A stretch of 64,000 nt of DNA from a virus. The stretch lies in IMG/VR virus record IMGVR_UViG_3300024978_000198. One strand, written 5' to 3'. Of the stretch, positions 5,448-63,656 are shown one piece after another; within the stretch, counting starts at the first letter, position 1; each line of letters opens with the position of its first letter. Both the position numbers and the translations under genes were made by a program. The notes beneath the pieces are model-generated. The model was not told the DNA's origin, did not search any database, and was given only the letters and a program-made list of their open reading frames with translations.

Positions 5448-5477
5448 CTACGTGTGCGGCCTCGCACTGGCACCCCC
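5448..5477 (-). promoter_or_regulatory. Class A motif GGGGGTGCC-N9-CCGCACACGTAG
   Basis: Exact spacing shared by 17 copies in the window. Confidence 0.75.
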
Positions 5478-5496
5478 CACGCCGTCTACCGCGGCG

Positions 5497-5508
5497 CCGC
5501 GCATAGAT
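5497..5508 (+). promoter_or_regulatory. Class B motif CCGCGCATAGAT, 5 nt before the ATG at 5514
   Basis: One of 13 copies directly upstream of tagged genes. Confidence 0.75.
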
Positions 5509-5513
5509 GGGTT

Positions 5514-7475
5514 ATGAGCGCAGCGAATCAGCCGAGAATCAAGCCAGGTGTGCCAACCGGCGGCCAGTGGGCCGCGTTCGAGCACAACGAAGCAGGGGTG
5601 TCCTTGTCGGATGCACCTCGCAAGCCGGCGTGGTCGGACATTCAGGCGCGGGTCGATGAACTGGCCAAGTCTGGCCATGCACCGGCGCGTGCAACTTCTG
5701 CCACGTCGGATCCACGACGCGCAGCGGGTGCGAAATCGTGGTGGGCGAATCACTTCGTGAATGCCGAGTACGGCGCCGCTGGTGGCGACTATCCCCAGAT
5801 GCCCGACGACTACACACCGAAGCGCACCGGCGGTAACGCGCTGTCAGGACATCGGCGCACACACCGGATGGCATATTCGACCGCAGACGGCAAGTTCTCG
5901 GTGCGGATGCCTTCAGCCACGTCGATCAAAGCCTTCGAGGGCGAGACCAGCGGCACGTTCGACGTACCGGTGTCCGCTGTGGACGCGGGCGGCAATACTG
6001 TTGCCGGCTGGGTCCGGGCCACCCGCTCGGGTGCCAACTGGAACGTGACCGCTCTCGGCGACTTCGGCGAGAAGACCGGCGCGCAGGTTTCGGAAGCGGT
6101 GTCCGCGGTACTGGAGTCTCGCCGTCCGTCGCGCTCGCTGCGCGATGTCGGTGACCTCCTCGAAGCACACCGGGCCCGCAAGGCCGCCGGTGGGGACACA
6201 TTCGTCGAGGTGCCTTCAACGTTCATCAGCGGGGTCGGCTACAGCGACGAGAACGGCACGATGGCCGTTGCGATCCGCGACAAACTCTATGGCTACCAGG
6301 TGTCCCGCGACGCGTTCGAAGCCGTGCGAAACTCAAGCTCCCCCGGCGGCGCCTACAACCGACTGGTAAAAGGACAGGCCCGATCCGAGCTCGGCCGTTG
6401 CGAGGAGTGCGGGCGCTTTTACGCTGCCGCCAATCCGCACACTTGCCCGACCGGTCACAAGCCGCCCACCGGCTTGACGATCGAGCACAACTTGGCCGCC
6501 CGGGCCTCGGTCGCTTCGATGGCGCGCCTAGCAATGCCTCCGACGCCTACCGCTGTCGATGACGGTCTGGACGACGAAACGCGCACCGCGATCGCCGCTC
6601 TCGCCTCCTACAAGGTCGGCGACAAGGACACCGAGGTAACCGCCGACGAAGCTCGGGATATTCTCGAATCCCTCTCGCCAGGTGACTGGTCCACTCGCGT
6701 CTACGGCATCGGCGTCTTCCCCAGCAATCCGACGCCACAGATCGTTCGCATCCATTCCGTTGCGAAGCTGGATTCGGACGCCTACCGCAGTCGCATCGCC
6801 AAGATGTGGGTTTCCGGCACCACGATCAACGATCTGGTTCAACCCGCCCGGCCCGCGCCTCCTCCCCAGCCGCCTTTCGGTACTCACACCGCGGTGCCGA
6901 AGGATGCGAAAACCGTTGATGTGCGCGCCTACATGATCGACGCCGGAAAGGAGCCACTCATCGACGTCGGGTGGAAGCCGGAGGGCTACCGGCGCGGCTG
7001 GACGACAGACCGGGCAGTGGCCGACAGTGTCGGCAAGTACACGTCTTCGCACTACCTCCCGCTGACCTACAAGAACTCGTCCGGGTACGGACAGCACTGG
7101 AATGGTGAGAGCGGCATCTTGCTCTACAGCGGCATCGGTGGCGAGGACGCCGGCGGGCTCGCTGAAGCGATCCCGGCCGGGCTGAAGGGTGAGCGCCAGG
7201 CCGATGGCCCAGCCGCTGCCGCGGTGCTTCAGGCCGCCGCGGCGAGCGACGGACGTCTGGAGGTCGGCGGCTACCTGGTGGGTCCCGATCGCACGGACGA
7301 GCGAGTCTCGACTGATTCCGTGTACCTGTACGACGCGACCGGGTCGTCACCTGAGTACGCGCTGCACACTCTCCGCACGAAGTACGGCGTCGATGCCGGA
7401 ACGCCGACTGAGGTTAAGAAGGTCGAAAACCCGTGGCGCCCCGGCGAGAAATGCTGGTACATGTTCTGGGACTGA
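5514..7475 (+). CDS. GGQF-tagged multidomain protein with a KTSC-like domain and CxxC-x-HxC knuckle
   Basis: Starts MSAANQPRIKPGVPTGGQWAAFEHNEAGVSL; KTSC-like VPSTFISGVGYS...LYGYQV...SSSPGGAYNRLVKG; CEECGRFYAAANPHTC. Confidence 0.8.
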   Translation: MSAANQPRIKPGVPTGGQWAAFEHNEAGVSLSDAPRKPAWSDIQARVDELAKSGHAPARATSATSDPRRAAGAKSWWANHFVNAEYGAAGGDYPQMPDDYTPKRTGGNALSGHRRTHRMAYSTADGKFSVRMPSATSIKAFEGETSGTFDVPVSAVDAGGNTVAGWVRATRSGANWNVTALGDFGEKTGAQVSEAVSAVLESRRPSRSLRDVGDLLEAHRARKAAGGDTFVEVPSTFISGVGYSDENGTMAVAIRDKLYGYQVSRDAFEAVRNSSSPGGAYNRLVKGQARSELGRCEECGRFYAAANPHTCPTGHKPPTGLTIEHNLAARASVASMARLAMPPTPTAVDDGLDDETRTAIAALASYKVGDKDTEVTADEARDILESLSPGDWSTRVYGIGVFPSNPTPQIVRIHSVAKLDSDAYRSRIAKMWVSGTTINDLVQPARPAPPPQPPFGTHTAVPKDAKTVDVRAYMIDAGKEPLIDVGWKPEGYRRGWTTDRAVADSVGKYTSSHYLPLTYKNSSGYGQHWNGESGILLYSGIGGEDAGGLAEAIPAGLKGERQADGPAAAAVLQAAAASDGRLEVGGYLVGPDRTDERVSTDSVYLYDATGSSPEYALHTLRTKYGVDAGTPTEVKKVENPWRPGEKCWYMFWD

Positions 7476-7487
7476 CCGCGCATAAGT
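7476..7487 (+). promoter_or_regulatory. Class B-like 12-mer CCGCGCATAAGT, 5 nt before the ATG at 7493
   Basis: Same core and spacing as the other copies, but the downstream gene is untagged. Confidence 0.55.
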
Positions 7488-9821: not shown

Positions 9822-9916
9822 CACCGACCCCCTGCCGTGTCCTTGCACCTGCCATTTCGGATCGTCGATCTGGACGGTCTGGCGCTGTCGGTGGGAAGTC
9901 TAGGTTGTTGATGCAT
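9821..9916 (-). CDS. Putative 31-aa leaderless ORF (MHQQPRLP...), not in the track
   Basis: ATG 5 nt after the class A motif at 9922-9951; TGATG overlap with the exonuclease start. Confidence 0.4.
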   Translation of the reverse strand: MHQQPRLPTDSARPSRSTIRNGRCKDTAGGR

Positions 9917-9921
9917 ACCCT

Positions 9922-9951
9922 CCACATGTGAGGCAACCGGCCGGCACCCCC
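9922..9951 (-). promoter_or_regulatory. Class A motif
   Basis: GGGGGTGCC-N9-CCTCACATGTGG-N5-ATG. Confidence 0.7.
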
Positions 9952-12658: not shown

Positions 12659-12690
12659 GGGGGTGCCGGCCGTATCCCCCGCACACAACC
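12659..12690 (+). promoter_or_regulatory. Class A-like motif with an 11-nt spacer, upstream of the helicase
   Basis: GGGGGTGCC-N11-CCGCACACAACC. Confidence 0.45.
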
Positions 12691-12725
12691 GTCGAACTCA
12701 TTCATGAAGAGCGGAGAGATCTCTC

Positions 12726-19381: not shown

Positions 19382-19705
19382 CTAGAACGTGGCTTCGGGA
19401 TTGTCGACGTCTTCGGCGGACAGCTCGATCTGCTGAATGATGTCCATCGGGGCAGCGACGATCTGGTGCTGCCCTGGCCGGAAGGCTGCGATCGCGGCAA
19501 TGGCTGCAAGCGGGTCGTCCGCCCCGGCCTTGACTGTCGGACCGAACGGTGTGAGGTCAACTTCAGCTCCCGATGCCGCAGCGCCCAGTGCGAACTGGAC
19601 CACCTCGTCGGTGCCGGTGAAAACGCCGTCCTGCCAGCGCCCGCGCAGCGGATCGCCTTGCCCGTCGTCGAACCACACCTCGACCAGACTCATTCGCTCC
19701 TCCAT
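19382..19705 (-). CDS. Hypothetical protein, untagged
   Basis: ATG 5 nt after the class A motif at 19711-19740. Confidence 0.75.
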   Translation of the reverse strand: MEERMSLVEVWFDDGQGDPLRGRWQDGVFTGTDEVVQFALGAAASGAEVDLTPFGPTVKAGADDPLAAIAAIAAFRPGQHQIVAAPMDIIQQIELSAEDVDNPEATF

Positions 19706-19710
19706 GGTTC

Positions 19711-19740
19711 ATGTATGTGCGGCGCACCGTCGGCACCCCC
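19711..19740 (-). promoter_or_regulatory. Class A motif
   Basis: GGGGGTGCC-N9-CCGCACATACAT-N5-ATG. Confidence 0.75.
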
Positions 19741-22261: not shown

Positions 22262-22789
22262 TCAGTCGCCGTATATCTCTGACTGGGCAACCGTTTTCGC
22301 CAATTCGGCAGCCGATTCGCGGTACCGCTCGGTGACCTCCCCGGCGATGGCTCGCCAATCATATCCGTACTGGTCGCTATCACCGGGATGGTCGCCGTCC
22401 TCCCATGCGCCGTGATCGTCGATATCGACGCCGAGAAGCATCTGTGGCTGCCGGTAATCGATATCGGCAGCGAGTTCTTCGCCGTGTTCGTCGTCTTCGA
22501 GTGCAATCGTCATCAGTTCGGCGCTGACCAAAGCGGCGCGGCCGGCAGACAGCGAAGCGCACCCCTGGTCCAGAAGTTCACGAAGCTTGTCGATGGACTC
22601 GGCGGCGTCCGGGTTCGCCTCGTAGAGCGCACTCGCCTTCTCGTACGCCTCGGTCTCCAGCCGATCGGCGCGAATGGCGACTCTCGATCTGACCTCGTCA
22701 CCGAGGGATACTGCTGGATCCGACTTGACCGCTGTGGCGAACTGTCCTCCAGCCGGAACGCCAGCTTCGACTCGAAACTGATTACTCAT
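22262..22789 (-). CDS. GGQF-tagged hypothetical protein
   Basis: MSNQFRVEAGVPAGGQFATAVKSDPAVSL. Confidence 0.8.
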   Translation of the reverse strand: MSNQFRVEAGVPAGGQFATAVKSDPAVSLGDEVRSRVAIRADRLETEAYEKASALYEANPDAAESIDKLRELLDQGCASLSAGRAALVSAELMTIALEDDEHGEELAADIDYRQPQMLLGVDIDDHGAWEDGDHPGDSDQYGYDWRAIAGEVTERYRESAAELAKTVAQSEIYGD

Positions 22790-22794
22790 ACCTG

Positions 22795-22824
22795 ATCTAT
22801 GCGCGGCGCCGAGACGGCACCCCC
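22795..22824 (-). promoter_or_regulatory. Hybrid motif carrying both the GGGGGTGCC box and the class B 12-mer
   Basis: GGGGGTGCC-N9-CCGCGCATAGAT-N5-ATG, linking the two classes. Confidence 0.75.
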
Positions 22825-38875: not shown

Positions 38876-38916
38876 GACCGACCAGTGTGCGGCATCAGCC
38901 CGGCACCCCCCCCAGA

Positions 38917-40614: not shown

Positions 40615-41402
40615 GCCTCCCTTGATCCGGTCTCGTGGGCAGCGCCTTGCCGACTATCACGCGTACATGGCGCAACTGCGGAGGCTGAGACGCCGAACGG
40701 GCTAAGAGGTTGGCCGCCGTCCGTGAGCACATCATCGACAGACCAAGACAGTCCTTTTCGCGTGGCGCCAACGATGGTCGCGCCAGGTGCACCAAGCCGA
40801 TTGAGGGCCGGCGACAGGGTCAGGAGTTCATGCGCCCGGGCCCGCAGATCGTTGAGCGTGCCGTCGTTCTCGACGACGACGTCGAAGTCGGCCTGCCCCA
40901 AGGTCACCTCGGACTCATGCCCGTTCACTGGGCCGACTCCCGGTCGGTTGACCCAGACCAGTAGTCCACCGCGAGATGTGATTGCGCGGGCTTCGTTCGA
41001 AATACGAATACCGGTGATCACGGTGTCGACCGATGGGTCGATTCGCTGCGTCATTGCGTCGACCCAAACGTCCTGGCCGAACATGTTGCGCCCGACCTCA
41101 GTTCCCATGACCTGCAGCAGCCGGCGGACTTCGGGGAGCTTTTTCGTCTCAACCAACCCGCGGTCGGCCACAAGGTCCGTGAATCGAACTGATGATCCGT
41201 CATCGAGCGGTATGAACGGGTCGAGCAGCGTCAACGCCTCGACCATGGGTGCGCTCATTGTCGTGCGGGAGAAGCCGCGCTCTTCCAGGAAGTCCGCGAG
41301 TGCGTCTTTTCCGGCCGTGGCATAGCCTCCGACACCGATCAGTGCGGCAGCTCTAGGCCGGTTGGTAGATTCCCCGCCGTCGTTGCTTGTGCTGACTGTC
41401 AT
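40611..41402 (-). CDS. Phage-type deoxynucleoside monophosphate kinase
   Basis: GVGGYATAGKD, VRRLLQVMGTEVGR, VITGIRISNEA; class A motif at 41408-41437. Confidence 0.85.
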   Translation of the reverse strand: MTVSTSNDGGESTNRPRAAALIGVGGYATAGKDALADFLEERGFSRTTMSAPMVEALTLLDPFIPLDDGSSVRFTDLVADRGLVETKKLPEVRRLLQVMGTEVGRNMFGQDVWVDAMTQRIDPSVDTVITGIRISNEARAITSRGGLLVWVNRPGVGPVNGHESEVTLGQADFDVVVENDGTLNDLRARAHELLTLSPALNRLGAPGATIVGATRKGLSWSVDDVLTDGGQPLSPFGVSASAVAPCTRDSRQGAAHETGSREA

Positions 41403-41525
41403 GACTTGGTCATGCGAGGTCGAACACTGGCACCCCCTTCCGCTGAAGGCTAGGCAGGGGACGAGGAAGTCATATTGGGATGGGGCCTGGCAAATCTACG
41501 CTAGCGTCCAGACCGAAGGTAACTG

Positions 41526-42389: not shown

Positions 42390-43537
42390 GCCGCGTTCTC
42401 CCACTTGCCGACGGCGGCGAACAGGTCGGAGAACGCGGCGCGCAATGTCTCGGGCAGAGCCACTTTCTTCGGCTTCAAGTCGATAAGGATCTTGACCGCT
42501 GGCGCTGCGGCGTCAGGACGGCCACCTTCGGCACAGGCGACCATCACATCGACGGACTGCCGCCACTTCTTCTCGGTGACGCCGCTCATCTGCAAAATTG
42601 CGGCGATTGAATACACCAAAGCGAACAGGCGATCCGGGCGGCTGCCTCGCCAGTCGACAATGGACGGGTCGGCCAATACCTCAGCTGGGTCATACAGGTC
42701 TGTTGTGACGAGCCACGCCAGGTATTCCGTAGCGGCACCTTCACCGACACAGCCGATGAGCACCAGGAGCGCGGCATCCTCGTCTGCAGGGTCGAGTTCA
42801 CCGAGCACCGCCATCGCGTTAGTCCACGATCGAGGCGACGGCCAGCCTTTGCCGGCAGTGACCGGATCGGATGGCATCTTGTGAAGTAGATTCGGATGTG
42901 AGCGCAGGAATGTGGTGATCTCGGCGCGCACCTTCACCCGGTGCTCGGTGCTGCCCACTCCGAGAATGCTTTCGATGGTCTGCGGGCGGGTTGCCTCGAA
43001 TCCGGTCATCACACCGGCGAACCAGGCATCTATGTCGAACTTCCAGTCCACGTGCATGAGCCGGTTGGCGATTGGGGCCGGTAGGTCCCAGCCATCGACG
43101 GCCACCGAGGCCGGGTTCGCCGCGGCGACGATAGATACGGAGTCGGGCAACTGGAATTCGCCGACCACGCGCTCCTGCAGGATGCGAAGCATGGCGCGCT
43201 GCACGCTCGGTGGCGCGGTTGTCAGTTCGTCGAAGAACAGGAGGCCCTTGTCGGCCTCCGCGACACGGCGGGCCCACGACAAAGTCGTGTACTTGACGGT
43301 GCCGTCGTCCTCGAACGGCAGCCCCATGAAGTCGGTCGATTCGCGTACTGAGCCGACGACTGTCTCGACGTGGAAACCGGAGGCCTTGCCGAAAGCGGTC
43401 AACGAAGCGGTCTTCGCGACACCCGGGTCTCCCCAGAGGACCGTCGGGATGTTGGCGCGGATCGCGGCGGCGAGTGCGCGCATGTGAGGCATGGCCTTGG
43501 TCGTGGTGGCGGTCGTTGCCGCGTCCTGGTTGCTCAT
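42386..43537 (-). CDS. MoxR-like AAA+ ATPase
   Basis: LWGDPGVAKT, LFFDELTTA, AAANP, PIANRLMH, PSPRSW; class A motif at 43543-43572. Confidence 0.88.
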   Translation of the reverse strand: MSNQDAATTATTTKAMPHMRALAAAIRANIPTVLWGDPGVAKTASLTAFGKASGFHVETVVGSVRESTDFMGLPFEDDGTVKYTTLSWARRVAEADKGLLFFDELTTAPPSVQRAMLRILQERVVGEFQLPDSVSIVAAANPASVAVDGWDLPAPIANRLMHVDWKFDIDAWFAGVMTGFEATRPQTIESILGVGSTEHRVKVRAEITTFLRSHPNLLHKMPSDPVTAGKGWPSPRSWTNAMAVLGELDPADEDAALLVLIGCVGEGAATEYLAWLVTTDLYDPAEVLADPSIVDWRGSRPDRLFALVYSIAAILQMSGVTEKKWRQSVDVMVACAEGGRPDAAAPAVKILIDLKPKKVALPETLRAAFSDLFAAVGKWENAA

Positions 43538-43585
43538 GTCCCTACCATGTGCGGGATCGGTCTGGCACCCCCGACGGTGCCCCAT

Positions 43586-44113: not shown

Positions 44114-46295
44114 TCGACGGCGCCTTCCCGATCATTGCTGCGAACTGGCCCGGGGTAACAATCGGCACGCCGAGACTCTTGGCCTTGGCCCACTTCGACG
44201 AGCCTTCCTCACCGCACACCAGGAGAGAGGTCTTGGCCGACACCGATCCCGAGGACTTTCCACCGCTTCGCTCAATGAGCTCGTTCATCTCGTTGCGGGA
44301 AAGGCCATCAAGCGCACTGCCTTTCATCGATCCGGTGACGACGATCGTCATGCCCGAGAGGGTCGAGTCGTTCGCCTGGGCAGCAGACGAAGGCGGGTTC
44401 TCGCCGGCGGCTTCGGACCCGTCCTGGGCGGCGTTCTCGGCCATGATCGCCTCGATCCGGCGAATCAGCGGTCCCATCTCGGCAAGTTCTGAGACGATGA
44501 GCTGCGCCTTCTTGTCGCCGATGCCTTCGACTTCTTGTAGCTCGGCTTCGGTTGCCGCGCGCAGCTCGTGAAGCGAGCCGAAACGAGCAGCGATACGGCG
44601 AGACATGGCGCGCCCGGTTCCCCGGATGCCCAGTGCGGTGATGATCCTGGCCAGCGGCGCTCGGCGCGCCTTCCCGATCTGGTTAACCAGATGCTTGGCT
44701 GTTGATTCGCCGATTCGTCTTTCCTTGCCCGCGGCGTCCTTGGTCGTCAGGTCGATGAGGTCGGTTTCGCCCAGCAGGAGCAGTTCGTCGATATCGTTCA
44801 GGCCAGACTCGACTAGCGCCTCGACGATCGCGGTGGACATGCCATCGATGTCCAGCGCATCCCGGCTGACGGCGTAGATCAGCCTGGCTGCCACCGACAG
44901 TTCCGGTGTGATCGAACGCCACAGCAGGGTCGACTTGTCCCACGGGTTGCCTGCAGGGTCGGTTGCTGGCGGCTGCCAGCGCACCGCGTGCTCGGGGCGT
45001 CGCGACAGAATTGGCGACTCGACTCTCGGGATGACATCCCCGGCTTTCTTGACAATGACAGTGTCGTCGATGCGAATGTCTTCGTCCTGCAGCCACGAGA
45101 CGTTGTGCAGCGAGGCGTAAGAGACGACGGAGCCGTCCACGACTGTCGGGTTGATGCGGGCGCGCAGCGCGAGCCTGCCGGTGCGTCCGATCGAGACTTC
45201 AATGTCCTGGACGACGGCAGTGAGTTCCTTCGCCGGGAACTTGTACGCCAGCGCCCAGCGCGGCGCGCGGGACGTGGCTCCGAGTCGGGAGCGGTCCGCG
45301 TAGTTGTCGGCCTTGATGACGGCTCCGTCGATCGGGTAGCCGAGATCTTCCCGCTCGGCTTCGAGGATCTTCACTCGGGCGATGACCTCGACCGGGTCGG
45401 TGACGGCGATGCCTTCGCGCCCGTGCACCGAAACGACCGATTCGGTGTCCATGTAGGTCTTTTCGGCGCTGCCAAGCGCGAAGGAGAGCAGCCTGGCGGC
45501 TGTTCCGAACAGCGACTGGTGCAGAAAGTCGATGCGGCGGCTGTAGGTACCACGCGCTGCGATGGTGCCGAACGCCTCGATGACAGAATCCTCGATCGCG
45601 ACGAGGTGCGCCGATCCGGTGTCCACCAGATCGTAGGCAGCGAACGACAGCGGCACCGCGTAATCCCCGCGCTGCCGGCGGATCGAGCCGGCGACTGCGT
45701 TGCGTTGGTTGGCGAATGCATTCTCGCCGTGCTCCGCGCGAATCTCGTTGGCCCGCACAAACTGTGGGCTCGACATGTAGATTTCTCCGCGGACTTCGAA
45801 GTCGAGCTTCTGGCCGATTTCTTCGGGCAAGCCGGTGATCGGGTTCGGCTGCGCCGTAATGTCCTCACCGGTGGTGCCGTCGCCGCGAGTCACCAACTGC
45901 ACCAGCTTCCCGCTCCGATAGACTGCACGGACGGCCATGCCGTCGAGTTTCGGCTCCACGACCACTGGGCAATCAATGGAACCAAGCCACTCGTCCAGCG
46001 CTTGTGGGTCGTCGGTCACCTTGTCGAGGGACAGCATCGGAGTCGTGTGCTTTGTGTCGCCTCCGGCACTGGTCCCGGCCGCAACCTGATCGAACAGGTG
46101 GTGGTCGATCTTCCAATCCGGGTGGCTCTCCTCTGTTCGCGCGACGTCATCGACGAGCCGGTCGTACTCGGCGTCCGACATCAGCTCGATGTCTCCGTCG
46201 TAGTAGGACCCGGCCGCTTCGGTCGCGCGTCGGACTGCAGCTTCGTAGTCGTCCCGAATGTCGATCGTCATAGGTGCCTCCGTTGCGTAGCTCAT
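44106..46295 (-). CDS. ligA: NAD+-dependent DNA ligase lacking the C4 zinc finger
   Basis: YYDGD...MSDAEYD, EPKLDG, TRGDG, EVRGE, IDGAVIK, KAGDVIP, HhH repeats, BRCT; start set by the class A motif at 46301-46330. Confidence 0.92.
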   Translation of the reverse strand: MSYATEAPMTIDIRDDYEAAVRRATEAAGSYYDGDIELMSDAEYDRLVDDVARTEESHPDWKIDHHLFDQVAAGTSAGGDTKHTTPMLSLDKVTDDPQALDEWLGSIDCPVVVEPKLDGMAVRAVYRSGKLVQLVTRGDGTTGEDITAQPNPITGLPEEIGQKLDFEVRGEIYMSSPQFVRANEIRAEHGENAFANQRNAVAGSIRRQRGDYAVPLSFAAYDLVDTGSAHLVAIEDSVIEAFGTIAARGTYSRRIDFLHQSLFGTAARLLSFALGSAEKTYMDTESVVSVHGREGIAVTDPVEVIARVKILEAEREDLGYPIDGAVIKADNYADRSRLGATSRAPRWALAYKFPAKELTAVVQDIEVSIGRTGRLALRARINPTVVDGSVVSYASLHNVSWLQDEDIRIDDTVIVKKAGDVIPRVESPILSRRPEHAVRWQPPATDPAGNPWDKSTLLWRSITPELSVAARLIYAVSRDALDIDGMSTAIVEALVESGLNDIDELLLLGETDLIDLTTKDAAGKERRIGESTAKHLVNQIGKARRAPLARIITALGIRGTGRAMSRRIAARFGSLHELRAATEAELQEVEGIGDKKAQLIVSELAEMGPLIRRIEAIMAENAAQDGSEAAGENPPSSAAQANDSTLSGMTIVVTGSMKGSALDGLSRNEMNELIERSGGKSSGSVSAKTSLLVCGEEGSSKWAKAKSLGVPIVTPGQFAAMIGKAPSNV

Positions 46296-46661
46296 GGGTC
46301 GTACGTGTGCAGCGGCCGAATGGCACCCCCCTGCTAGCCTCTCTCGCCTGGCGTCGAACAGGTCATGCACTTTTGCGCCCATTCGCTTCTTCTCCGGGTC
46401 GGAGATCGCCGCCCATGCTCGTCCGCGGCGGCCGGAGTCTCGATCCCCGCCTCGGATGACCGGGCAGGCGATGTAGCTATGCAAGACGCGCATAACGAGT
46501 CGTGTCGCGGGCCGCTCACCGTAGATGATCGCGCAGAACAGGCAGGCGTACAGGTGGTCGTCCTTCCCCGTCCATGCCGCGAAGTTGACGACGACGATGA
46601 GCAGCAGCCAGCCGACCGGGAGTGTGGCCAGCCCCAACAGGTACCAGACGAGCGCGCTCAT
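46296..46661 (-). CDS. Putative membrane protein reading in frame into ligA with no stop
   Basis: ATG overlaps the trxB stop; hydrophobic N-terminus [25 protein letters not shown]. Confidence 0.5.
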
Positions 46662-48201: not shown

Positions 48202-48422
48202 GCCGTGCCCCTTCCCGCTTCTTCGATTCGGCTAGGCACGTATCTGCTCCACCAGTTCACCGCTGACACCTTCCCCTTGCCGGGACCGTCAACCTGACGC
48301 CAGCGCACCTCGATCGGTGAGCCATCAATCCGATCTCTAACCACGTCGACGACCTCCACGGCCATGTCATTGGCGAGTCGACGCCAGATCTTCACTGTTG
48401 CGAACGGGTCTTGAATACTCAT
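48198..48422 (-). CDS. Small hypothetical protein
   Basis: Start moved to MSIQDPF: degenerate class A motif GGGGGTGCC-N9-CCACGTATATCG-N5-ATG at 48428-48457. Confidence 0.6.
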   Translation of the reverse strand: MSIQDPFATVKIWRRLANDMAVEVVDVVRDRIDGSPIEVRWRQVDGPGKGKVSAVNWWSRYVPSRIEEAGRGTA

Positions 48423-48473
48423 ATCCCCGATATACGTGGCCGACACCTGGCACCCCCAGCGGACGGGCCAGAT

Positions 48474-49280
48474 TCACGCGGCGACGACGCTCTGCAGGTC
48501 CATAAGGGAGATCGGCTTGTGCAACAAGAAGCCCTGCACCTTGTCGCATCCAATCGCACGTAGCGCATCCTGTTGATCTGCCGACTCCACGCCCTCGGCG
48601 ACAACCGCCAGGCCGAGCTTGTGCGCCATGTCCACGATCGAGTCGACGATCACCCGGCCGCGCTCCGTCGCTGACACGGAGTCGATGATCGACTTGTCGA
48701 TCTTCAGCTTGGTGAACGGCAACGAGTAGAGCCGCGCGAGCGATGACTGCCCGGAGCCGAAGTCGTCTATGGCGAGCCCGACGCCAATGTCGCGTAGTTC
48801 GGTCAGGGTGGCAAAGGCGTGGCTTGCGTCGCCGGTAATCGCGCTTTCGGTGATCTCCAGTACAAGCTGCGATGGGCTCACCGCTGACGACTGCAACAAC
48901 TTCTCGACGGCGCCGACGAGATGGGGGTCGAACAGCTGAAGTGGAGCGACGTTCACATGCAGCGTGAAATCACTGTGACGGCGCAGCAAGCCGGACATCG
49001 ACTCGATGGACTGCCGAAGCACCCAGCCGCCGATCTCAATGATCGCTCCGGTTCGCTCGGCCACGGGGATGAAGTCGGCCGGTGAGATTCGGCCCAGCTC
49101 GCCCGAGTGCCAACGCAGCAGCGTTTCGACGCCTGAGATATCGCCAGTGTCGGTGTTGCAAATCGGCTGATAGTCGAGAAACAGCTCACCGCGGTCTGCG
49201 GCGCCGCCGAGCAGCTCCCCCATTCTGGTCTCTACGCCGTGCCGGGCGTCTCCGTGTGTTCGCGATCTCGACACCTTCAT
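48474..49280 (-). CDS. Stand-alone EAL-domain c-di-GMP phosphodiesterase
   Basis: YQPI, ETLLRW, HVNV, LEITES, IDDFGSG, KLKID, AEGVE, QGFL; class A motif at 49286-49315. Confidence 0.9.
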   Translation of the reverse strand: MKVSRSRTHGDARHGVETRMGELLGGAADRGELFLDYQPICNTDTGDISGVETLLRWHSGELGRISPADFIPVAERTGAIIEIGGWVLRQSIESMSGLLRRHSDFTLHVNVAPLQLFDPHLVGAVEKLLQSSAVSPSQLVLEITESAITGDASHAFATLTELRDIGVGLAIDDFGSGQSSLARLYSLPFTKLKIDKSIIDSVSATERGRVIVDSIVDMAHKLGLAVVAEGVESADQQDALRAIGCDKVQGFLLHKPISLMDLQSVVAA

Positions 49281-50194
49281 ACCGGATACATGTGCGGCGA
49301 ACCCGCAGCACCCCCGTCGTGCGGGAGTGGGCCGGCTGCCACCGAGCGAGATACGAGAAGCGCGTCGGGGCGCCAAACGAATCGATCCTGCACGTCAAGG
49401 CCCTGAGCTACGGCCACCGCCTCGGCAAATGCGGGAATGTCACATCCGTACCATGCTGAGCACCACACCGGGTTTGCCTCGATGACCGCCCATCCGGAAG
49501 TCGTCCACGCTAAATCAAGGCTGTATGCCTGGCCAGCGGGATGCTGCCGCGCGATCTTGATAGCGAAGTCGTCAGCGGCGTGCTGGGCGGACGCGGCGTA
49601 TGCCGGATCTGGTTCGGCGAAATCCGGATCCGATCGATCCCGGCCGTCCGGGTCAAGGTAGGAGGAGATGGACGCCACGTCGGCGCCGATGACAATGGCT
49701 CGGTACTCCCGGGTGATCGAGAGTCTGGTGTCGCCCATCTGAAGTAGTGCATCGTCGGGGAGGCCCGCGGCCTTGATGTCTGCGCGGAGCTGCAGTGAAC
49801 CCCGCCATTTCGCGGGGAACGAGTCGAGCTTCGCCTCCGCGAGCTTCCAGAATCCAGTCCTCGGCGACCGGTAGGCGCTCCGCGCAGACATCAGCGCAAT
49901 GAGGCGTCCGGTCGGGATGCCGGCGACGGCGAAATGAATGCTGGCTGCTGGTAGCCACGTCGGCCCCGGTGCGGCCAGCCGCAGCAGATTGCCGTGCACG
50001 ATCTCCCTGGCTGCGAACGCGGATGGACACCACAAAATGTGCTCCGGACAGTGGCCGACACCCGGCGGAAGCGCTGAAAGCCCGTGGTGTGCGACCACAG
50101 ACCAGCCAGCAGGAACGAGCGCCGCAGTAAGTTCGTCGACCATCCAGCGCCGCTGGGTCACAACATGGAACGTGCGCCTAGTTGGGCCCGACAT
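49277..50194 (-). CDS. ATP-grasp protein, R2K/DUF4343-like
   Basis: REYRAIVIG, YSLDLA, WAVIEANPVW. Confidence 0.65.
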   Translation of the reverse strand: MSGPTRRTFHVVTQRRWMVDELTAALVPAGWSVVAHHGLSALPPGVGHCPEHILWCPSAFAAREIVHGNLLRLAAPGPTWLPAASIHFAVAGIPTGRLIALMSARSAYRSPRTGFWKLAEAKLDSFPAKWRGSLQLRADIKAAGLPDDALLQMGDTRLSITREYRAIVIGADVASISSYLDPDGRDRSDPDFAEPDPAYAASAQHAADDFAIKIARQHPAGQAYSLDLAWTTSGWAVIEANPVWCSAWYGCDIPAFAEAVAVAQGLDVQDRFVWRPDALLVSRSVAAGPLPHDGGAAGSPHMYPV

Positions 50195-51741: not shown

Positions 51742-52026
51742 TTAATCCTTCTTCCTGGTGATAATGATCGATCCGGCGGCGATCGCCGCAGCGAGGATGA
51801 CTCTCCAGTCCGTGTATGCCACGCCCGACAGGCTCTGCGACATGGAGCGGTCCGCGGCGCCTTCTTCACCGCGGGCCCAGCGCATCAGGTTGTACTCGAC
51901 TTCCATCCGGTGCTGCCCGGATGTGTAGCCGAGAGCCTCTGCCCGAGACAGGCCGGCAGCCACATTCACGGCGTCGACGTTGACGCCCGGCGTTAGGCCC
52001 TGCCCGGTGATCGTTCTTGCCCTCAT
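51742..52026 (-). CDS. Small hypothetical protein
   Basis: ATG 5 nt after the class A motif at 52032-52061. Confidence 0.7.
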   Translation of the reverse strand: MRARTITGQGLTPGVNVDAVNVAAGLSRAEALGYTSGQHRMEVEYNLMRWARGEEGAADRSMSQSLSGVAYTDWRVILAAAIAAGSIIITRKKD

Positions 52027-52036
52027 ACTGGATTTG

Positions 52037-52109
52037 TGTGCGGCCAGAGCGTGGCACCCCCGAGAGTGGTTCCGTGACGATCTCGGGGGTGCCACGCTCT
52101 GGCCGCACA
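52037..52109. repeat. Perfect 29-bp inverted repeat with a 15-nt spacer, each arm carrying a class A motif facing outward
   Basis: 52037-52065 TGTGCGGCCAGAGCGTGGCACCCCCGAGA is the exact reverse complement of 52081-52109. Confidence 0.92.
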
Positions 52110-52119
52110 TTGTGATGTC

Positions 52120-54801
52120 ATGAGCGAGGAGAGCCACTGGTTGCCGGCGGTATTGGGGACTGCGAGCAGCGCCGAGACGGTGAAGAGGCAGGCTGCGTCG
52201 CTGCGGGCCGACCTAACCAGGCGGAAGATGCAGCTCTCCGCTGATCAGGAGCGCCTGAAGTCCGACTTGGAGCGGCAGCGCCGGGAGATGGAGGCAGAGT
52301 TCTCGCGGAAGCGAGCTGAGCTCGACGCAATGATGAAGCCGCTTGTCGAGCAGCTCAGCAAGATCACCGAGATCGCATTCACAGTGGATCTTTACCTGGG
52401 GCGGGACGAGACTCTTCGGCAGATCGCCGATGGTTCGCCCGCCACAGCTGAGACGCCGCTGACCATCCGGCAGCGGGTGCTGGTGATGTCGGAGGAGTCG
52501 TTGATCCTCATGGGCGACGGCGGCAAGGGCGTCGACTACCGCAGCGTCGACTCGTTCCTTGGCTGGGTCACCTCGGACCGCTCCCACATCGACCAGATCA
52601 TCCCTGAGCAGCGTGGCGTCGTGGTGCTGGTCCCAACGCGCGTGAAGTCCAACAGTGGCAACGTTTTCGAGGATGCTGCAGTGGACTCAGCTAACGAGGA
52701 GTCCTATTGGCTTCTCCGCAATGGCGAGAAACTGTTCGTGCTGACCGTGAGTGACGGACTGCGCGTCGAAGACAAGATCCTTCCGGACCGCGACGAGTTC
52801 GTCCGCATTTTCGAGGAGCGTCTGTTCGGTGTGCGGCTGTCCGACGTCGAGCCCGGCTCGGCCAGGTGGATCGAGTTGGAAAAGAGGGCTGACGCCCTCC
52901 GCCGGCACTACATGCGTATCCTTCTGATCTTGCAGGGGCTCATCGACCGCACCGCGGTTTGGCATCCGCTACCAGCCGGCGGCCTGTCCGTTCTCAGGCT
53001 CGCCGATCAGGACAGTGGCAAGGTGGTGCTGCAGCAGGATGCCGACACCTCCCGGCAGCTCGGCGACGGACGCCCCAGCTTCTCCGACTGGATCGGCGGG
53101 CTTTCTGCCCAGCTTCGCCCCGGACTTCGCGTGATCGGGGCTTGGAACTCGGCGATGGCCGATGGCGACAGGGTGACCCCGGAAACTGTGCGGAGCAAGC
53201 CTTCGCAGGACATCATCTACACGATCGAGGACCGACGCGACGGCGATCTGATCATCCGGTTCAAGCGCACCGATCAGGTGTGGCGGAAGAATGTGCCAGT
53301 GCCGGGCGAGCCGGGATACGTGTATCGCGAACGGCTCGTCGATGCGAAGAACCGTGCCTCGTACCGCATCCAGGTCGGAGACAAGTGGGTGCTCCCGATC
53401 GATCTCGTCACCGAGGCTGACCTCACTTATTACCTGGGTTCGCGTGACAACCGGTCAAAGTTCTTCCTCAGCATGGTTCCCGTGCTGAAGGCCGCGATCG
53501 CTGCGAAGACAGCAGAGTTCGACGAAGAAGCCTCGTTTCAGCAGCTGATAGCCGCACAGATCGAGATGGAGGGCACTGACCTGGAGGAGTCGCGAGCGAT
53601 CACCGAGGAGCTGATCTCCTGGTGGAAGGTTGCGCTGGCCAAGGGGCGGAAACTCCAGGGGGACGCGGCGCATCAGCGGAAAGCGATCGCGGAGATCCTG
53701 GCCGAGCACAGGGCTCGGAAAAAGGGATCCAAGAGCGCAGGGTTCGATGCTGCGATGGCCGTCGGCGGTGTCATCGCCGTGGGAAGGAAGCGCAACGGCC
53801 ACTACCTCGCGCTCGTCCCTGCGACGCCGGCGCCTGATCCGAACGTGTTCCTGCACATCACCGAGTTCACGTCAGGCGGGAAGAAGGTAAGCGCGAAGGA
53901 GTGGACGACACTCCCCCGCCGGTCGGCTTCGCTCATGCGGTTCGAGTACGAGACCGAGCAGTGGGCCGGGTGGAACACGGTCGCGAATCCGCGCAACTAT
54001 CTCACCGGACCGCAGAGGGACGAACTCATCGAGCAGATTCTTGACGAGGACAACCGGGACTGGCGTCTGATTTGCGTCGAAGAGACCTTCGACCCGTCCA
54101 TGCCGGATCAACGTGTTCTGATTTCTTATCTGTGGGATCTCCCGAGCATGCCGAAAGACACCCCGGCTGTCGTGGCGAGTAACGCAACGAGCCACTTCTA
54201 CCAGGAGGGCAGTTACGTTCAGCCAGTGAAGGCGGTTCGAAGGCGCGTCAGCGTGAGCGCTCGCGGGGAAGAGTCTTTCACCGCGAAATCGGACTTGCGC
54301 TGCCACTACGGCGTTCCGTGGAACACGGACGGGTCGATTCGAAGCGGGAAGCGAACGCCGTGGGTTGACTCCTATCTCCTGTCCGATGTGAACGACTGGA
54401 ATCTTCAGTGCACCAAGGCGGCCACCGACGAGGAGAACCGGAGAAAGGCGCTCAGTGATGACGCCTACCGGTACGTCAACGCCATCACCGCCATCATCGC
54501 CGACCGGGTCCGAGCTGAGGCTTACGAGCGGTTCGTCGAGGACTACGGCACGGAATCCCGCGATCTCTGGCCGGCGCACGAGAAGCAGCTCAAGACTAAG
54601 CCGATCCACCCCCGGACTATCTGGGGCGTCGTCGCGATCGCTCTGGAGCACGGTGAAGACGTCGCCGGAAGAACACTCGGGGAGCTAGCAGAATCAGCCC
54701 ACGCTAACCATCAGAACAAGGCGCCGGGTGAATGGCATCCTGACCGCGGCGCTCAGAACATGGGCGAGTTCGCCGACGTGGTCGTGCCCGATCCCCGGTA
54801 G
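52120..54801 (+). CDS. Large hypothetical protein with an N-terminal coiled coil
   Basis: 893-aa ORF; ATG 5 nt after the class A motif at 52085-52114. Confidence 0.85.
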   Translation: MSEESHWLPAVLGTASSAETVKRQAASLRADLTRRKMQLSADQERLKSDLERQRREMEAEFSRKRAELDAMMKPLVEQLSKITEIAFTVDLYLGRDETLRQIADGSPATAETPLTIRQRVLVMSEESLILMGDGGKGVDYRSVDSFLGWVTSDRSHIDQIIPEQRGVVVLVPTRVKSNSGNVFEDAAVDSANEESYWLLRNGEKLFVLTVSDGLRVEDKILPDRDEFVRIFEERLFGVRLSDVEPGSARWIELEKRADALRRHYMRILLILQGLIDRTAVWHPLPAGGLSVLRLADQDSGKVVLQQDADTSRQLGDGRPSFSDWIGGLSAQLRPGLRVIGAWNSAMADGDRVTPETVRSKPSQDIIYTIEDRRDGDLIIRFKRTDQVWRKNVPVPGEPGYVYRERLVDAKNRASYRIQVGDKWVLPIDLVTEADLTYYLGSRDNRSKFFLSMVPVLKAAIAAKTAEFDEEASFQQLIAAQIEMEGTDLEESRAITEELISWWKVALAKGRKLQGDAAHQRKAIAEILAEHRARKKGSKSAGFDAAMAVGGVIAVGRKRNGHYLALVPATPAPDPNVFLHITEFTSGGKKVSAKEWTTLPRRSASLMRFEYETEQWAGWNTVANPRNYLTGPQRDELIEQILDEDNRDWRLICVEETFDPSMPDQRVLISYLWDLPSMPKDTPAVVASNATSHFYQEGSYVQPVKAVRRRVSVSARGEESFTAKSDLRCHYGVPWNTDGSIRSGKRTPWVDSYLLSDVNDWNLQCTKAATDEENRRKALSDDAYRYVNAITAIIADRVRAEAYERFVEDYGTESRDLWPAHEKQLKTKPIHPRTIWGVVAIALEHGEDVAGRTLGELAESAHANHQNKAPGEWHPDRGAQNMGEFADVVVPDPR

Positions 54802-56078: not shown

Positions 56079-56169
56079 TTCCTCCGCCGCCTTCGTCTCA
56101 GTCGATCACGATTGACATGTTGTACATGTGCGGCGACCGTCCGGCACCCCCGAATCTGCGGTAAGCAGT

Positions 56170-60586: not shown

Positions 60587-61085
60587 TGTGCTCCGTCTCC
60601 CAAGCTTCTCGGCTCTTACGATCGATGGGCCCGATCATGGTGTCGACCCACGCGACCGAGCCGTCGCGGGTGACGTGGTTGTCGCCAGCATGGGCGTACG
60701 GCAGCCAGCAGGCGTTCACGTCGATACCTGGGCTGAATGACCCGCAGGTCACTTTGTGGCCGACGTAGTCGCCATGTCCGGCGTACAGTGCGCAGCGCAT
60801 CGGGTCGCCGTAGGAGTTGACGTCCACGGAGGTGCACCGGCCCCAGTCAGATCCGTCCCGCCATGGGGTCGCCTCGCACGAGTAGCACGGGGAGGCAAAC
60901 TGCTTTCCGTGGAACGGGCAGTCGAGCCCTCCGGGGGCTGCGACTTCGACATGGGTCGCGGCGCAGCCCTTGTCGGCGCATTGGTAGTCGCGGCACCTGC
61001 CGCGCTGCCCGACATATTCCCATGTGTGGTCGCCGGGACTTTCGTGCAGAGGTGGCCTCGCTGCTGCGTAGTCGTGATTGCTCAT
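60579..61085 (-). CDS. Cys/His-rich hypothetical protein
   Basis: ATG 5 nt after the class A motif at 61091-61120. Confidence 0.65.
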   Translation of the reverse strand: MSNHDYAAARPPLHESPGDHTWEYVGQRGRCRDYQCADKGCAATHVEVAAPGGLDCPFHGKQFASPCYSCEATPWRDGSDWGRCTSVDVNSYGDPMRCALYAGHGDYVGHKVTCGSFSPGIDVNACWLPYAHAGDNHVTRDGSVAWVDTMIGPIDRKSREAWETEHNA

Positions 61086-61155
61086 GATCTCCTTTTGTGT
61101 GGCGTCCAATTGGCACCCCCGCCATCCCCCGACTCAGGTCCCAGAATGCGGCGAG

Positions 61156-61299: not shown

Positions 61300-61496
61300 C
61301 AGGAGTCACTCTCTTTGACATATCGTTCGCCGAACACGTGTGGATAGCAGGCATGGCGGCGAGTCTGCCCCTCATACACCCAGACGATGTCCCTGAGGGT
61401 GCCCTTCACCCAGTTCACAGATTCGACTCGGACACGGCGTCCGTCCGACTTTCGGCGCCAGACGCTGCCCTGGAAGACCATGCTGTTCTCGGCCAT
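61299..61496 (-). CDS. Small SH3-like hypothetical protein
   Basis: ATG 5 nt after the class A motif at 61502-61531. Confidence 0.65.
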   Translation of the reverse strand: MAENSMVFQGSVWRRKSDGRRVRVESVNWVKGTLRDIVWVYEGQTRRHACYPHVFGERYVKESDS

Positions 61497-61538
61497 GCAC
61501 AGTCCATGTGCGGTGGGTGTCCGGCACCCCCTAGAAAG

Positions 61539-62207
61539 TCATTCGATGTGCCTGCCACGTTGATCGGATAGGGTCATGCGCTTTGCTCCGGTTCGGTAGG
61601 CAGCGATGTCACCGTTGACGGCCGCGATGACGTCCTCGATCTCCCTCACATCAGATGCGGTCGCGCTCTTCACCACCTGAATGGTTTCCTCCGACTTCTG
61701 CGACCGGCATTCTTGGATCTCGAAGACGTCTCTTCGACCGTTAGCCAAAGCGACAAGGTCGGCGAGCTTCCCAGCGCCGGACTTGGTGAGCATGTACTCC
61801 CATTTCGGCCCGTCATCGATCACCACGTCGAATCCGGATGCTGCCACGATCGTGTTTTCGGCGTCTGTGATGGCGTCAATGAGCAGCGCTGACTCGGGAG
61901 CCACAGCGGCCCTGATGTGCTGGCAATACGAGGCGTCGATGGAGTTGAGACCCGGCGAAAAGACCTCGGGGTATTCCGCAGGCGGCGGCGACGCGACTGT
62001 CTGGGCGGCGCTGTTCGTAGGGTACCCGTCAGATTCGGCATCGATCGCGAATGCTCCACCGAATCCAGCGACAATTGGCACCGATATCAGAATCAGTGCT
62101 AGCGCAGTCGCAAGTGCGACGAACAGCGCTGCACGCCAGTCTGTGCGGTTCTCTTCCTTGCAGAGTGCGGCCGCATTCGGCGCCTCCTGTGGCGATCTCT
62201 GCAGCAT
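61539..62207 (-). CDS. Membrane-anchored or secreted hypothetical protein
   Basis: N-terminal hydrophobic segment. Confidence 0.6.
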   Translation of the reverse strand: MLQRSPQEAPNAAALCKEENRTDWRAALFVALATALALILISVPIVAGFGGAFAIDAESDGYPTNSAAQTVASPPPAEYPEVFSPGLNSIDASYCQHIRAAVAPESALLIDAITDAENTIVAASGFDVVIDDGPKWEYMLTKSGAGKLADLVALANGRRDVFEIQECRSQKSEETIQVVKSATASDVREIEDVIAAVNGDIAAYRTGAKRMTLSDQRGRHIE

Positions 62208-62251
62208 GTCTTGGAGCTCTTCTTTCCGTCTTGATGGGAGGATGGTGCCGG

Positions 62252-63598
62252 TCAGTCGTCAACGACGACGACAGTTGCCCAATCCGGGCAGGACTTCTTG
62301 AGCGCCTCGGCGCTCGGGCCGACCAGACAGATCACGAGCGGGATGCGCGTCGGCTCGGTGGGCCACGGCGTTCCGCCGTCTGAAACGACGACGACGACCG
62401 CCGGGTGCGGCTTAAGCGCTTCGGCCGCGGTGATGCCGACGCGCATGTCAGTGCCGCCTCGACCGGCGACTGTTTCCAGTGATTTCGCGGACGTGTAGTC
62501 GATCGTTTCGTGCACTTCGGCGTCCACGTCAAGCACTCGCAGTTCGCGACCGCGAACACCGACTGACCGGCTGATTCCGTCAACCTCGTTGGTCACGGCA
62601 TTCAGATCGTCTGCGCTCATCGACCCGGAGGTGTCGCGCACCACCGCGATCGATGGCTTCGGGGTGTAGGTGCCTGGATAGAACACCCGCCGCCCGTCGG
62701 GAAGTCGCGCGTCGTGTCGTCGCCTGGATCGGCGTGTGGGGTCGGCATCGAAGTCCCCGATCTTCTTGGCGACCGCGCGTTTGACCGCGGAAGCCAGCAC
62801 CTGCCGCCATGGAATCTTCGGCGGGGCCAGCACTTGCTCAGCCCGGGCACGCAGACCGGCCGGAACAGTCCCGCGGCCCTTGGCTGCATGGTCACGGATC
62901 GCTGCCGCTGTCGCTATCTCGACACGGATCTTTTCGGCGTCGGTCGCCCCCGGGGCGAAGGGCTCGCCGCCGGCGGATGAGCCGTCGTCATCGCCCAGTT
63001 CGCACGGCGCACCTTGCCCGCCGGACGCCGACCCGCAGCCGGAGAACTCACCCTGATGCGCGCCTCCCGGCTGCTTTCCGCCAGGCTTTGGCTGCTTCCC
63101 GCCGCGCTGCTGCCGCTGCTTGGCTTTGCGTTCCAGCGGCTCGAAGTACTGCTCGGCGAGCAGGTGATCATCCATTCCGAATCGGGACGGGAGCATCCCA
63201 TCAGACGCGAACGTTTGACAGCCCGCATCGGTGAGGTCATCGTTGATTTCGAGGTCGCAGGCGACGTTCCAATGCCGTTTCAGATTCCCGTGGACTCCGG
63301 CGTCCTCGGCGCGCTGGCGGTGCCGCCCGAAAAGGTGACCGCACTCGTGGAGCATCGATTCGACGCACCATTGATGGGTGTGCCGCTCGTCGGTGCGCAT
63401 CGACTCGAAGTCGACATAGAGCCGGTGCTTGTCGTCGCAGGCGAACGTCCCAAGGCCTGGCGCATCGACGGTCTGCAGCGAGAACAGCATCGCGGCCATG
63501 TACGGCATGATTTCCAGCGCCTCGGTGCGCCACTGCGCAAGAAGATCGAGGTCATCGGTGCTCGGCTTGCGGATCTGCGGGCCAGCCTGTGTGCTCAT
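62252..63598 (-). CDS. DUF2201-type HExxH domain plus C-terminal VWA domain
   Basis: LHECGHL, WNVACDLEIND, VVRDTSGSMS, GRGGTDM, VVSDG; class A motif at 63604-63633. Confidence 0.88.
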   Translation of the reverse strand: MSTQAGPQIRKPSTDDLDLLAQWRTEALEIMPYMAAMLFSLQTVDAPGLGTFACDDKHRLYVDFESMRTDERHTHQWCVESMLHECGHLFGRHRQRAEDAGVHGNLKRHWNVACDLEINDDLTDAGCQTFASDGMLPSRFGMDDHLLAEQYFEPLERKAKQRQQRGGKQPKPGGKQPGGAHQGEFSGCGSASGGQGAPCELGDDDGSSAGGEPFAPGATDAEKIRVEIATAAAIRDHAAKGRGTVPAGLRARAEQVLAPPKIPWRQVLASAVKRAVAKKIGDFDADPTRRSRRRHDARLPDGRRVFYPGTYTPKPSIAVVRDTSGSMSADDLNAVTNEVDGISRSVGVRGRELRVLDVDAEVHETIDYTSAKSLETVAGRGGTDMRVGITAAEALKPHPAVVVVVSDGGTPWPTEPTRIPLVICLVGPSAEALKKSCPDWATVVVVDD

Positions 63599-63656
63599 GC
63601 TCTATACGTGTGCGGCGATCGGCTGGCACCCCCGTGAAAACGTCCGCATTGCCGGG

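Follow-up and report, generated by a model that had tools for sequence, protein, structure and literature searches.

A two-part motif repeated ahead of genes of a large actinobacterial element: a probable private promoter

Copies, geometry, and conservation of the class A motif

The stretch of DNA analyzed in this study (hereafter the window) is 64,000 nucleotides (nt) of the IMG/VR record IMGVR_UViG_3300024978_000198 and belongs to a scaffold of 118.5 kb found in bioreactor/wastewater metagenomes. The element was extended by walking outward through independent assemblies. The right flank encodes DnaE, RNase T-like exonucleases, ArdC-N/M78, WhiB, dCTP deaminase, ParA, Lsr2, and tyrosine recombinases, and the left flank encodes an IS256-type transposase, G5 proteins, a SpaA/fn3 adhesin of 3,722 amino acids (aa), and FtsK/SpoIIIE translocases. 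No close DNA relatives of the window were found among phage or plasmid records, and two window proteins searched in IMG/VR gave no useful relatives. Since the nearest relatives of the AAA ATPase of the element (48% identical) are found on 370-440 kb Arthrobacter-group megaplasmids, which have many backbone genes in common with the element, it is a large actinobacterial conjugative element and not a phage. The subject of this report is a motif of this element, here called class A, in which the 9-mer GGGGGTGCC (box 1), a 9-nt spacer, and a 12-mer (the core CCGCACA and a five-base tail) stand ahead of a gene.

The window was searched for GGGGGTGCC-N9-CCGCACA with up to two mismatches, and the expectation was taken from 100 shuffles. 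It was found that the window has 17 matches against 0.07 expected, and none of the 100 shuffles reached 17. These matches are 16 of the 17 copies listed in a first-pass annotation of the window, together with the variant with an 11-nt spacer at 12659(+). At the other listed copy, 48428-48457, box 1 is exact but the core is degenerate (CCACGTA), and this copy was recovered by a scan for box 1, not by the two-part pattern. All 17 copies and the N11 variant are therefore present as described. The same annotation had stated that an ATG lies exactly 5 nt past the 12-mer in 15 of the 17 copies, which is correct; the gap is 3 nt in the remaining two, at 35475 and 56151. The coordinates also bear out that 12 of the 17 lie beyond 38 kb. 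Every exact copy of the 9-mer in the window (18/18) adjoins a core, and there are no orphan boxes. The minus strand, which carries most genes, has 16 of the 18 window copies, and all 18 have the direction of the downstream gene. Box 1 frequently starts just 8-24 nt past the stop codon of the upstream gene.

With the flanks included, the element has 35 non-redundant copies of class A over about 140 kb, of which 32 have a 9-nt spacer and 34 have an exact box 1. The start codon lies exactly 5 nt past the 12-mer in 25 copies (23 ATG and two GTG), and the base before it is C or T in all 25. The copies are dense in the DNA-metabolism region and sparse in the adhesin/transfer region. It had been noted that class A heads genes for a deoxynucleoside monophosphate (dNMP) kinase, an AAA+ protein, LigA, and EAL and VWA proteins as well as small open reading frames (ORFs), all of them lacking the N-terminal peptide tag described below, and these genes were seen at the copies listed in Table 1. 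Genes under class A also include dnaE, two RNase T-like exonuclease genes, helicase genes, a methylase-helicase pair, a trxB operon, and a NADAR gene.

The 15 window copies with the ATG 5 nt past the 12-mer were aligned, and the A of the ATG was numbered +1. The information content is in two blocks, GGGGGTGCC plus a purine at positions -35 to -26 and GCCGCACA at positions -18 to -11. A-11 is invariant, positions -10 to -6 are weaker (y-r-T-A-y), and the five bases ahead of the ATG are near random apart from -1, which is C or T in every copy. The gap between the 12-mer and the ATG in these copies cannot accommodate a Shine-Dalgarno sequence. The core departs from CCGCACA in five of the 15. Read in frame, the core gives Ala-Ala-His-x-x-x-Met (GCC GCA CAy ... 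ATG), as had been pointed out for the spurious N-terminal extensions of many ORFs, and the same reading is found in the relatives described below. A sigma-54-type -24/-12 spacing was rejected, as the GG and the GC are not 10 nt apart.

A sister strain is 92-94% identical to the element, and four class A promoters on two of its contigs were compared. Box 1 has no substitution at 36 positions, and CCGCACA has one at 28 positions (A to G at -13, a variant tolerated by the class B motif described below). The N5 linker has five substitutions at 20 positions, and the whole aligned segments are substituted at 6.1% and 7.6%.

These two blocks with fixed spacing, upstream of a gene and co-directed with it, have the form of a bipartite promoter. 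The start codon at the predicted +1, the purine at +1, the pyrimidine at -1, and the missing Shine-Dalgarno sequence are the features of a leaderless promoter. Five window copies are placed differently, off the start of the main gene and 32-148 nt upstream of a separate Shine-Dalgarno sequence and start codon. Since some copies of the signal adjoin the start codon and others are far ahead of a separate ribosome-binding site, its geometry is that of a promoter and not that of a translation signal. Start-associated sequences have been proposed to recruit ribosomes in cluster K mycobacteriophages. If class A were transcribed and acted at the RNA or translation level in a like manner, this would agree with its strict distance to the start codon and its presence ahead of many unrelated genes. 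However, the motif has no purine-rich Shine-Dalgarno-like element, and the five nucleotides beside the ATG are its least conserved part. Besides the five distant copies, the AAA ATPase gene of the relatives has a core box about 50 nt ahead of its Shine-Dalgarno sequence, and the pyrimidine at -1 with the purine at +1 fits a transcription start. A ribosome-recruiting role is thus extremely unlikely.

Enrichment, geometry, direction, conservation, and comparison all support the first-pass proposal of a promoter-type signal, and class A is probably a composite promoter private to a conjugative megaplasmid. In the proposed mechanism, GCCGCACA at -18 to -11 and the looser tail at -10 to -6 would form the -10-region element of a whole family of actinobacterial megaplasmids. 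This core would set the transcription start 11 nt past the invariant A, mostly at the A (or G) of the start codon. As the start would then be the first base of the start codon, the mRNA would be leaderless. GGGGGTGCC(R) at -35 to -26 would most likely play a positive role, as a -35-equivalent contact made by an adaptor protein or by the domain of the reading factor that binds upstream. It may make up for the weaker tail of the class A core, while class B would manage without box 1 by its strong tail, TAGAT. RNA polymerase would probably get its specificity from a factor encoded by the element, either a divergent sigma factor or a sigma adaptor, rather than from a sigma factor of the host.

Table 1. 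Class A copies in the window and the helicase-sigma fusion gene of a related megaplasmid
Feature	Position	Strand	Structure and downstream gene
Class A copy	5440..5477	-	Box 1, N9, 12-mer, N5, ATG; opens a 40-aa short ORF
Class A copy, core CCTCACA	9914..9951	-	ATG opens a 31-aa short ORF
Class A variant, 11-nt spacer	12659..12696	+	Leadered; UvrD-like helicase gene 12726-14216
Class A copy	19703..19740	-	Heads leaderless 107-aa gene 19382-19705; box 1 is 18 nt past the upstream stop
Copy with G-box and CCGCGCATAGAT	22787..22824	-	Heads GGQF-tagged 175-aa gene
Class A copy, ATG 3 nt past 12-mer	35440..35475	-	Heads a short ORF
Class A copy	38873..38910	-	Heads leaderless 160-aa gene 38393-38875
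Class A copy, core CCTCGCA	41400..41437	-	Heads dNMP-kinase-domain gene 40611-41402
Class A copy	43535..43572	-	Heads MoxR-like AAA ATPase gene 42386-43537; sister strain differs at -6 alone
Class A copy, core CTGCACA	46293..46330	-	Heads NAD-dependent DNA ligase gene 44106-46295; sister-strain boxes identical
Class A copy, core CCACGTA	48420..48457	-	Heads 74-aa gene, then thioredoxin reductase operon
Class A copy, box 1 GGGGGTGCT	49278..49315	-	Heads EAL-domain gene 48474-49280
Left arm of back-to-back pair	52024..52061	-	Heads 94-aa gene
Right arm of back-to-back pair	52085..52122	+	Heads orphan 893-aa gene 52120-54801
Class A copy, leadered	56116..56151	-	86-aa gene 55818-56078, upstream of NADAR gene
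Class A copy, core CCACACA	61083..61120	-	Heads 168-aa gene 60579-61085
Class A copy	61494..61531	-	Heads 65-aa gene 61299-61496; box 1 is 8 nt past the upstream stop
Class A copy	63596..63633	-	Heads DUF2201 metallopeptidase/VWA-like gene 62252-63598
989-aa helicase-sigma70-HA fusion	pYJN5-1 record 45591-48560 (L130 25592-28561)		Counterpart on pACHL01

The leadered copies differ in what lies between the motif and the main gene. At 12659(+), a GGAGAG Shine-Dalgarno sequence and the GTG of the helicase gene are found about 30 nt further downstream. At 35475(-), the short ORF and a 148-nt leader precede a DNA methylase gene (33166-35292) and a helicase gene (30548-33163). At 56151(-), the motif is followed in turn by a mini-ORF of six codons, a GGAGGAA Shine-Dalgarno sequence, and the ATG at which the 86-aa gene starts. 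Two leaderless short ORFs on the minus strand, 5320-5442 and 9821-9916 (40 and 31 codons), have stop codons overlapping the next start codon. The stop of the former overlaps (ATGA) with the start of the gene 4739-5323, which has its own Shine-Dalgarno sequence, and that of the latter overlaps (TGATG) with the start of an RNase T-like exonuclease gene at 9821. This arrangement suggests translational coupling or regulatory upstream ORFs. The 893-aa protein encoded at 52120-54801(+) had no Pfam, PHROG, or usable atlas match and no homologue on pYJN5-1. It was rejected as a private RNA polymerase, lacking a DxDGD-type metal-binding motif as well as a usable atlas match.

A core common to a megaplasmid family and two classes of probable promoters

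Is the core found on related plasmids and in the chromosomes of their hosts? The commonest 10-mer on both Paenarthrobacter pYJN5-1 and Pseudarthrobacter pACHL01 is CCGCACACAT. CCGCACA-N10-ATG was found at 79 sites on pYJN5-1 and 82 sites on pACHL01, and the reversed-pattern control gave 0. On these two megaplasmids, the arrangement CCGCACAC-N9-ATG has the same core as class A at the same distance from the ATG, and it stands ahead of leaderless genes throughout each plasmid. For comparison with chromosomes, 401 genomes of the host order were used; the order was reached via Piscicoccus intestinalis. In these genomes, CCGCACACAT-N7-ATG occurs 0-2 times per genome and 26 times in total. A 16-base class A pattern gave single chance-level hits only, in the species genomes listed and in IMG/VR, and a 19-base pattern including the ATG was found metagenome-wide in nearly only this element and its sister strain. 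The upstream box GGGGGTGCC at -35 to -27 was found only in these two. Since about 80 core sites are present per megaplasmid against 26 in 401 genomes, the signal is a property of the elements, not of host regulons. Confinement of this kind is expected of a private sigma regulon.

The first-pass annotation had raised the possibility of a host sigma factor of the extracytoplasmic function (ECF) type. In that case, a host alternative sigma factor would read the motif, and the genes of the element would be plugged into a host regulon. The absence of a recognized sigma gene in about 170 kb of the element is in favor of this, and the chromosome of the actual host in the bioreactor/wastewater metagenome lay outside the comparison. 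However, the near absence of the core with its ATG geometry from the 401 genomes, the single hits per stretch of the 16-base pattern, and the metagenome-wide scan are all contrary to a host regulon, and the relatives with the same core encode sigma-like proteins of their own. Reading by a host ECF sigma factor is quite improbable, and this part of the first-pass proposal was not upheld.

The megaplasmid pYJN5-1, a distant relative, has two kinds of sites. The 63 sites of untagged genes have an upstream box, cGGTGAGc, at -38 to -31 and the core (G/T)CCGCACACAT with C at -1. The 16 sites of genes for proteins with an N-terminal GxPxGGQF tag have no upstream box, and their core is AGCCGCACACA. 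The window has the same division. Class A, with the G-rich box 1 (G-box) and a variable tail, is ahead of untagged genes, and class B (CCGCGCATAGAT, no G-box) is ahead of tagged genes. In the window, the TAGAT tail accompanies the G-box in one of 15 cases and is present in eight of nine sites without it, so that the two features are anticorrelated (Fisher p = 1e-4). This design on pYJN5-1 (63 and 16 sites) and the anticorrelation in the window agree with the first-pass idea that one promoter architecture underlies class A and class B alike. The anticorrelation is a trade-off of a familiar kind, in which an upstream element is balanced against -10-region strength, as expected if the box compensates for a weaker tail. 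As annotated, the copy at 22795-22824 has both the G-box and the class B tail TAGAT, and outside the window several copies have both together. The classes are therefore modular and not exclusive.

The tag itself is found on about 25 otherwise unrelated proteins of the element, which begin with a common peptide, R-x-x-x-G-x-P-x-GGQFA-x-x-x-H-x-EP (window 5.5-38 kb; L131 2553). They include a CCA-adding enzyme, DNA methylases, and an ArdC-like anti-restriction protein (the ArdC-N/M78 gene). On pYJN5-1, the same tag is on 16 genes, including that of its ECF-like sigma candidate.

The conservation of box 1 may be given another meaning, in which the core is the promoter and box 1 serves as an operator. 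A global repressor encoded by the element would bind GGGGGTGCC over the -35 region, and the DNA-metabolism genes would be kept off until transfer or induction, like genes under stoperator- or KorB-type multi-copy sites. In favor of this, box 1 hardly varies (34/35 exact; 0/36 substituted in the sister strain), beyond what is typical of -35 elements and of the relatives' cGGTGAGc, and it overlaps the site of a -35 contact. Moreover, the right flank encodes MerR-like and helix-turn-helix (HTH) proteins in addition to Lsr2. On the other hand, box 1 never occurs apart from a core (18/18 exact window copies), it is asymmetric without a dyad, and its distance from the core is constant to the base. 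It also favors weaker tails and degenerate cores, which is a better fit to an activating element. I consider an operator role unlikely.

Back-to-back pairs and the search for the reader

Two pairs of class A copies are arranged back to back. One is in the window at 52024-52122, and the other is about 11 kb to the right, about 0.8 kb past the window edge (L131 8640-8760). The 9-nt spacers are identical within each pair, ACGCTCTGG in one and AAGCAGATG in the other. The first pair folds into a 29-bp stem with a folding free energy of -45 kcal/mol (z = -11). In the sister strain, both arms of this pair share two substitutions, T to G at -37 and C to A at -23, and the arms therefore evolve in concert, which could be explained by gene conversion between the arms or by selection for the hairpin. 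The two arms are identical up to -11 in the first pair and up to -8 in the second. A hairpin in every copy was rejected, as the 16 unpaired copies had z values of -2.1 to +1.9 against shuffles and no common structure. Two other sites on the minus strand, 43573-43582 and 22825-22834, have GGCACC/GCACC 3-5 nt upstream of box 1, which can pair with its GGTGCC. These short repeats resemble partial versions of the inverted arrangement.

It is a rather improbable idea that the back-to-back pairs are single-strand promoters built from the private promoter of the element, for use on DNA entering as a single strand. Folding of the 29-bp stem would restore the promoter as a duplex between -37 and -11, and -10 to +1 would stay single-stranded as the template. 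Whichever strand enters, one of the two flanking genes could be transcribed before synthesis of the complementary strand. The two concerted substitutions, and the arm identity ending at or just past the base flipped in promoter opening, would be the footprint of selection. In the leading regions of plasmids, Frpo-type single-strand promoters are known (PMC11541004, PMC9849209), and the likeness concerns the two pairs only, where a duplex promoter could re-form from the long inverted repeat once single-stranded DNA has been transferred. In contrast, 33 of the 35 class A copies are unpaired copies without hairpin potential, and the element carries FtsK/TraB-like translocases.

Two variants of the element (L177 14326 / L178 9897) have a common sequence that ends 13 nt from a class A box. 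Past this breakpoint, one variant has the region of a 577-aa FtsK-type gene, and the other has that of a 1,389-aa one. This may be due to cassette exchange at promoter repeats or to coincidence. Could the copies then be recombination sites or structural repeats, such as repetitive extragenic palindrome (REP)-like sequences, cassette boundaries, or single-strand hairpin modules, and not duplex promoters? The two pairs with 29-bp perfect stems evolving in concert and the breakpoint near one copy fit such a role. It is nevertheless very unlikely, because the 16 unpaired copies fold no better than shuffles, every copy has its direction and phase linked to a start codon, and the variable spacer excludes a simple repeated mobile unit.

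If class A is a promoter, it would probably be read by a factor of the element. The relatives encode two candidates for this reader, an ECF-like sigma family and a fusion of a helicase with sigma70 (Table 1). The ECF-like family is conserved and divergent, and its profile and predicted fold match sigma domain 2. The fusion consists of an XPB/RAD25-like SF2 helicase, a complete primary-like sigma70 (regions 1.2, 2, 3, and 4), and an HA domain. Many sigma models match the sigma part of this fusion, the MzaA model being one of them.

When these two sigma candidates were searched by tblastn against the element, only the common N-terminal tag was matched. A profile of 106 members of the ECF-like family also matched the tag only; with the tag removed, it gave one spurious antisense match, and it gave zero matches in further stretches of the element. 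Pfam/NCBIfam scans of about 50 element proteins yielded no sigma factor, HTH reader, or other DNA-binding candidate. The 303-aa protein encoded at 18447-19358 was rejected as an ECF-like sigma factor, as its resemblance is confined to the tag and an atlas search gave nothing. WhiB was rejected as a reader of the common core, because it is present in the element and absent from both relatives; it is a candidate reader of the element-specific box.

Several points weigh against the promoter reading. No RNA sequencing run containing the element was listed, and transcription initiation at class A is inferred. Recognition of the core by a factor of the sigma70 family is assumed, and the core lacks the TANNNT signature of a canonical -10 element (-12 is C in 14 of the 15 aligned copies, and -7 has no conserved T). 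The near-invariance of box 1 (exact in 34/35) is more operator-like than -35-like. When aligned by GGTG, the window box is about 5 bp, or about half a helical turn, nearer to the core than the relatives' box, and the two upstream boxes may not be equivalent contacts. As for the reader, no sigma factor or other DNA-binding candidate was found in about 170 kb of the incompletely assembled element by tblastn, the tag-free profile, and Pfam/NCBIfam. The fusion gene is absent from the syntenic site, where the two flanking genes are just about 620 bp apart.

Apart from the promoters, a gene for a DUF4379 zinc-ribbon/SF2 helicase/Methyltransf_8 protein was found to vary in length. The protein has at least 1,438 aa at window positions 214-4530 and 1,260 aa in another assembly (L165 10794-14576). 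Thus, the number of about 204-bp repeats in this gene differs between populations.

Implications and comparison with known systems

Large actinobacterial conjugative plasmids appear to run a transcription code of their own apart from that of the host, much as phages do. The present element seems to add a second layer, in which the invariant upstream box marks genes of replication, repair, and nucleotide metabolism apart from the genes of tagged proteins. If this is true, the motif provides a sequence rule for correcting start codons, as many ORFs have been called with false Ala-Ala-His-x-x-x extensions. It would also allow members of the plasmid family and their regulons to be recognized in metagenomes, and it would offer orthogonal G+C-rich promoter parts for actinobacterial engineering. 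What reads the box is a real question, because no sigma factor was recognized in about 170 kb and the box is about half a helical turn off the relatives' box; the 30-mer would be a defined bait for it.

A literature search with the exact motif returned chance matches only, and none of the publications searched describes this promoter or the transcription of pACHL01. Hybrid promoters offer one comparison. The T4 MotA box lies at about -30. Class A resembles MotA-type promoters, as well as those of PafBC, in having a conserved upstream element at a non-canonical position in place of the -35 hexamer, a fixed spacing to the -10 region, and dispersed regulon copies. In the case of PafBC, the -26 element ("sigma adaptation") is a displaced upstream element, and the canonical -10 element is kept (PMC8635444). 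Class A differs from both in that it has no canonical housekeeping -10 element, and no PafBC- or MotA-like gene was identified.

Leaderless promoters of actinobacteria offer another comparison. The mapped starts of Mycobacterium tuberculosis have a purine at +1, C/T is favored at -1 and +2, and a quarter of the genes are leaderless (PMC3898074). Actinobacterial SigA leaderless promoters have TANNNT centered 7-12 bp upstream of the transcription start and no conserved -35 element (PMC3898074). Class A likewise has a -10 region at a fixed short distance, a predicted +1 at the start codon, a purine at +1, a pyrimidine at -1, and an A at -11. In contrast, its core is CCGCACA-yrTAy and not TANNNT, it has an invariant upstream box, and it is missing from host-order chromosomes.

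The closest characterized system appears to be the regulon of SigN (ZpdN) of the Bacillus subtilis plasmid pBS32. SigN is a plasmid sigma factor, weakly ECF-like, with about 19 private bipartite promoters that are not chromosomal (PMC6751061). The differences are that the class A consensus is G+C-rich and unrelated, that no sigma gene was found in about 170 kb, and that mostly leaderless transcripts are predicted from two promoter classes with and without an upstream box. The likeness lies in the genes. SigN promoters precede genes for nucleotide synthesis, DNA Pol III, exonuclease, and gyrase (PMC6751061), and class A heads a very similar set (ligA, dnaE, RNase T-like, dNMP kinase, helicase, and trxB genes). 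The novelty of the present element lies in its G-rich, invariant upstream box and in the modular logic of the two classes.

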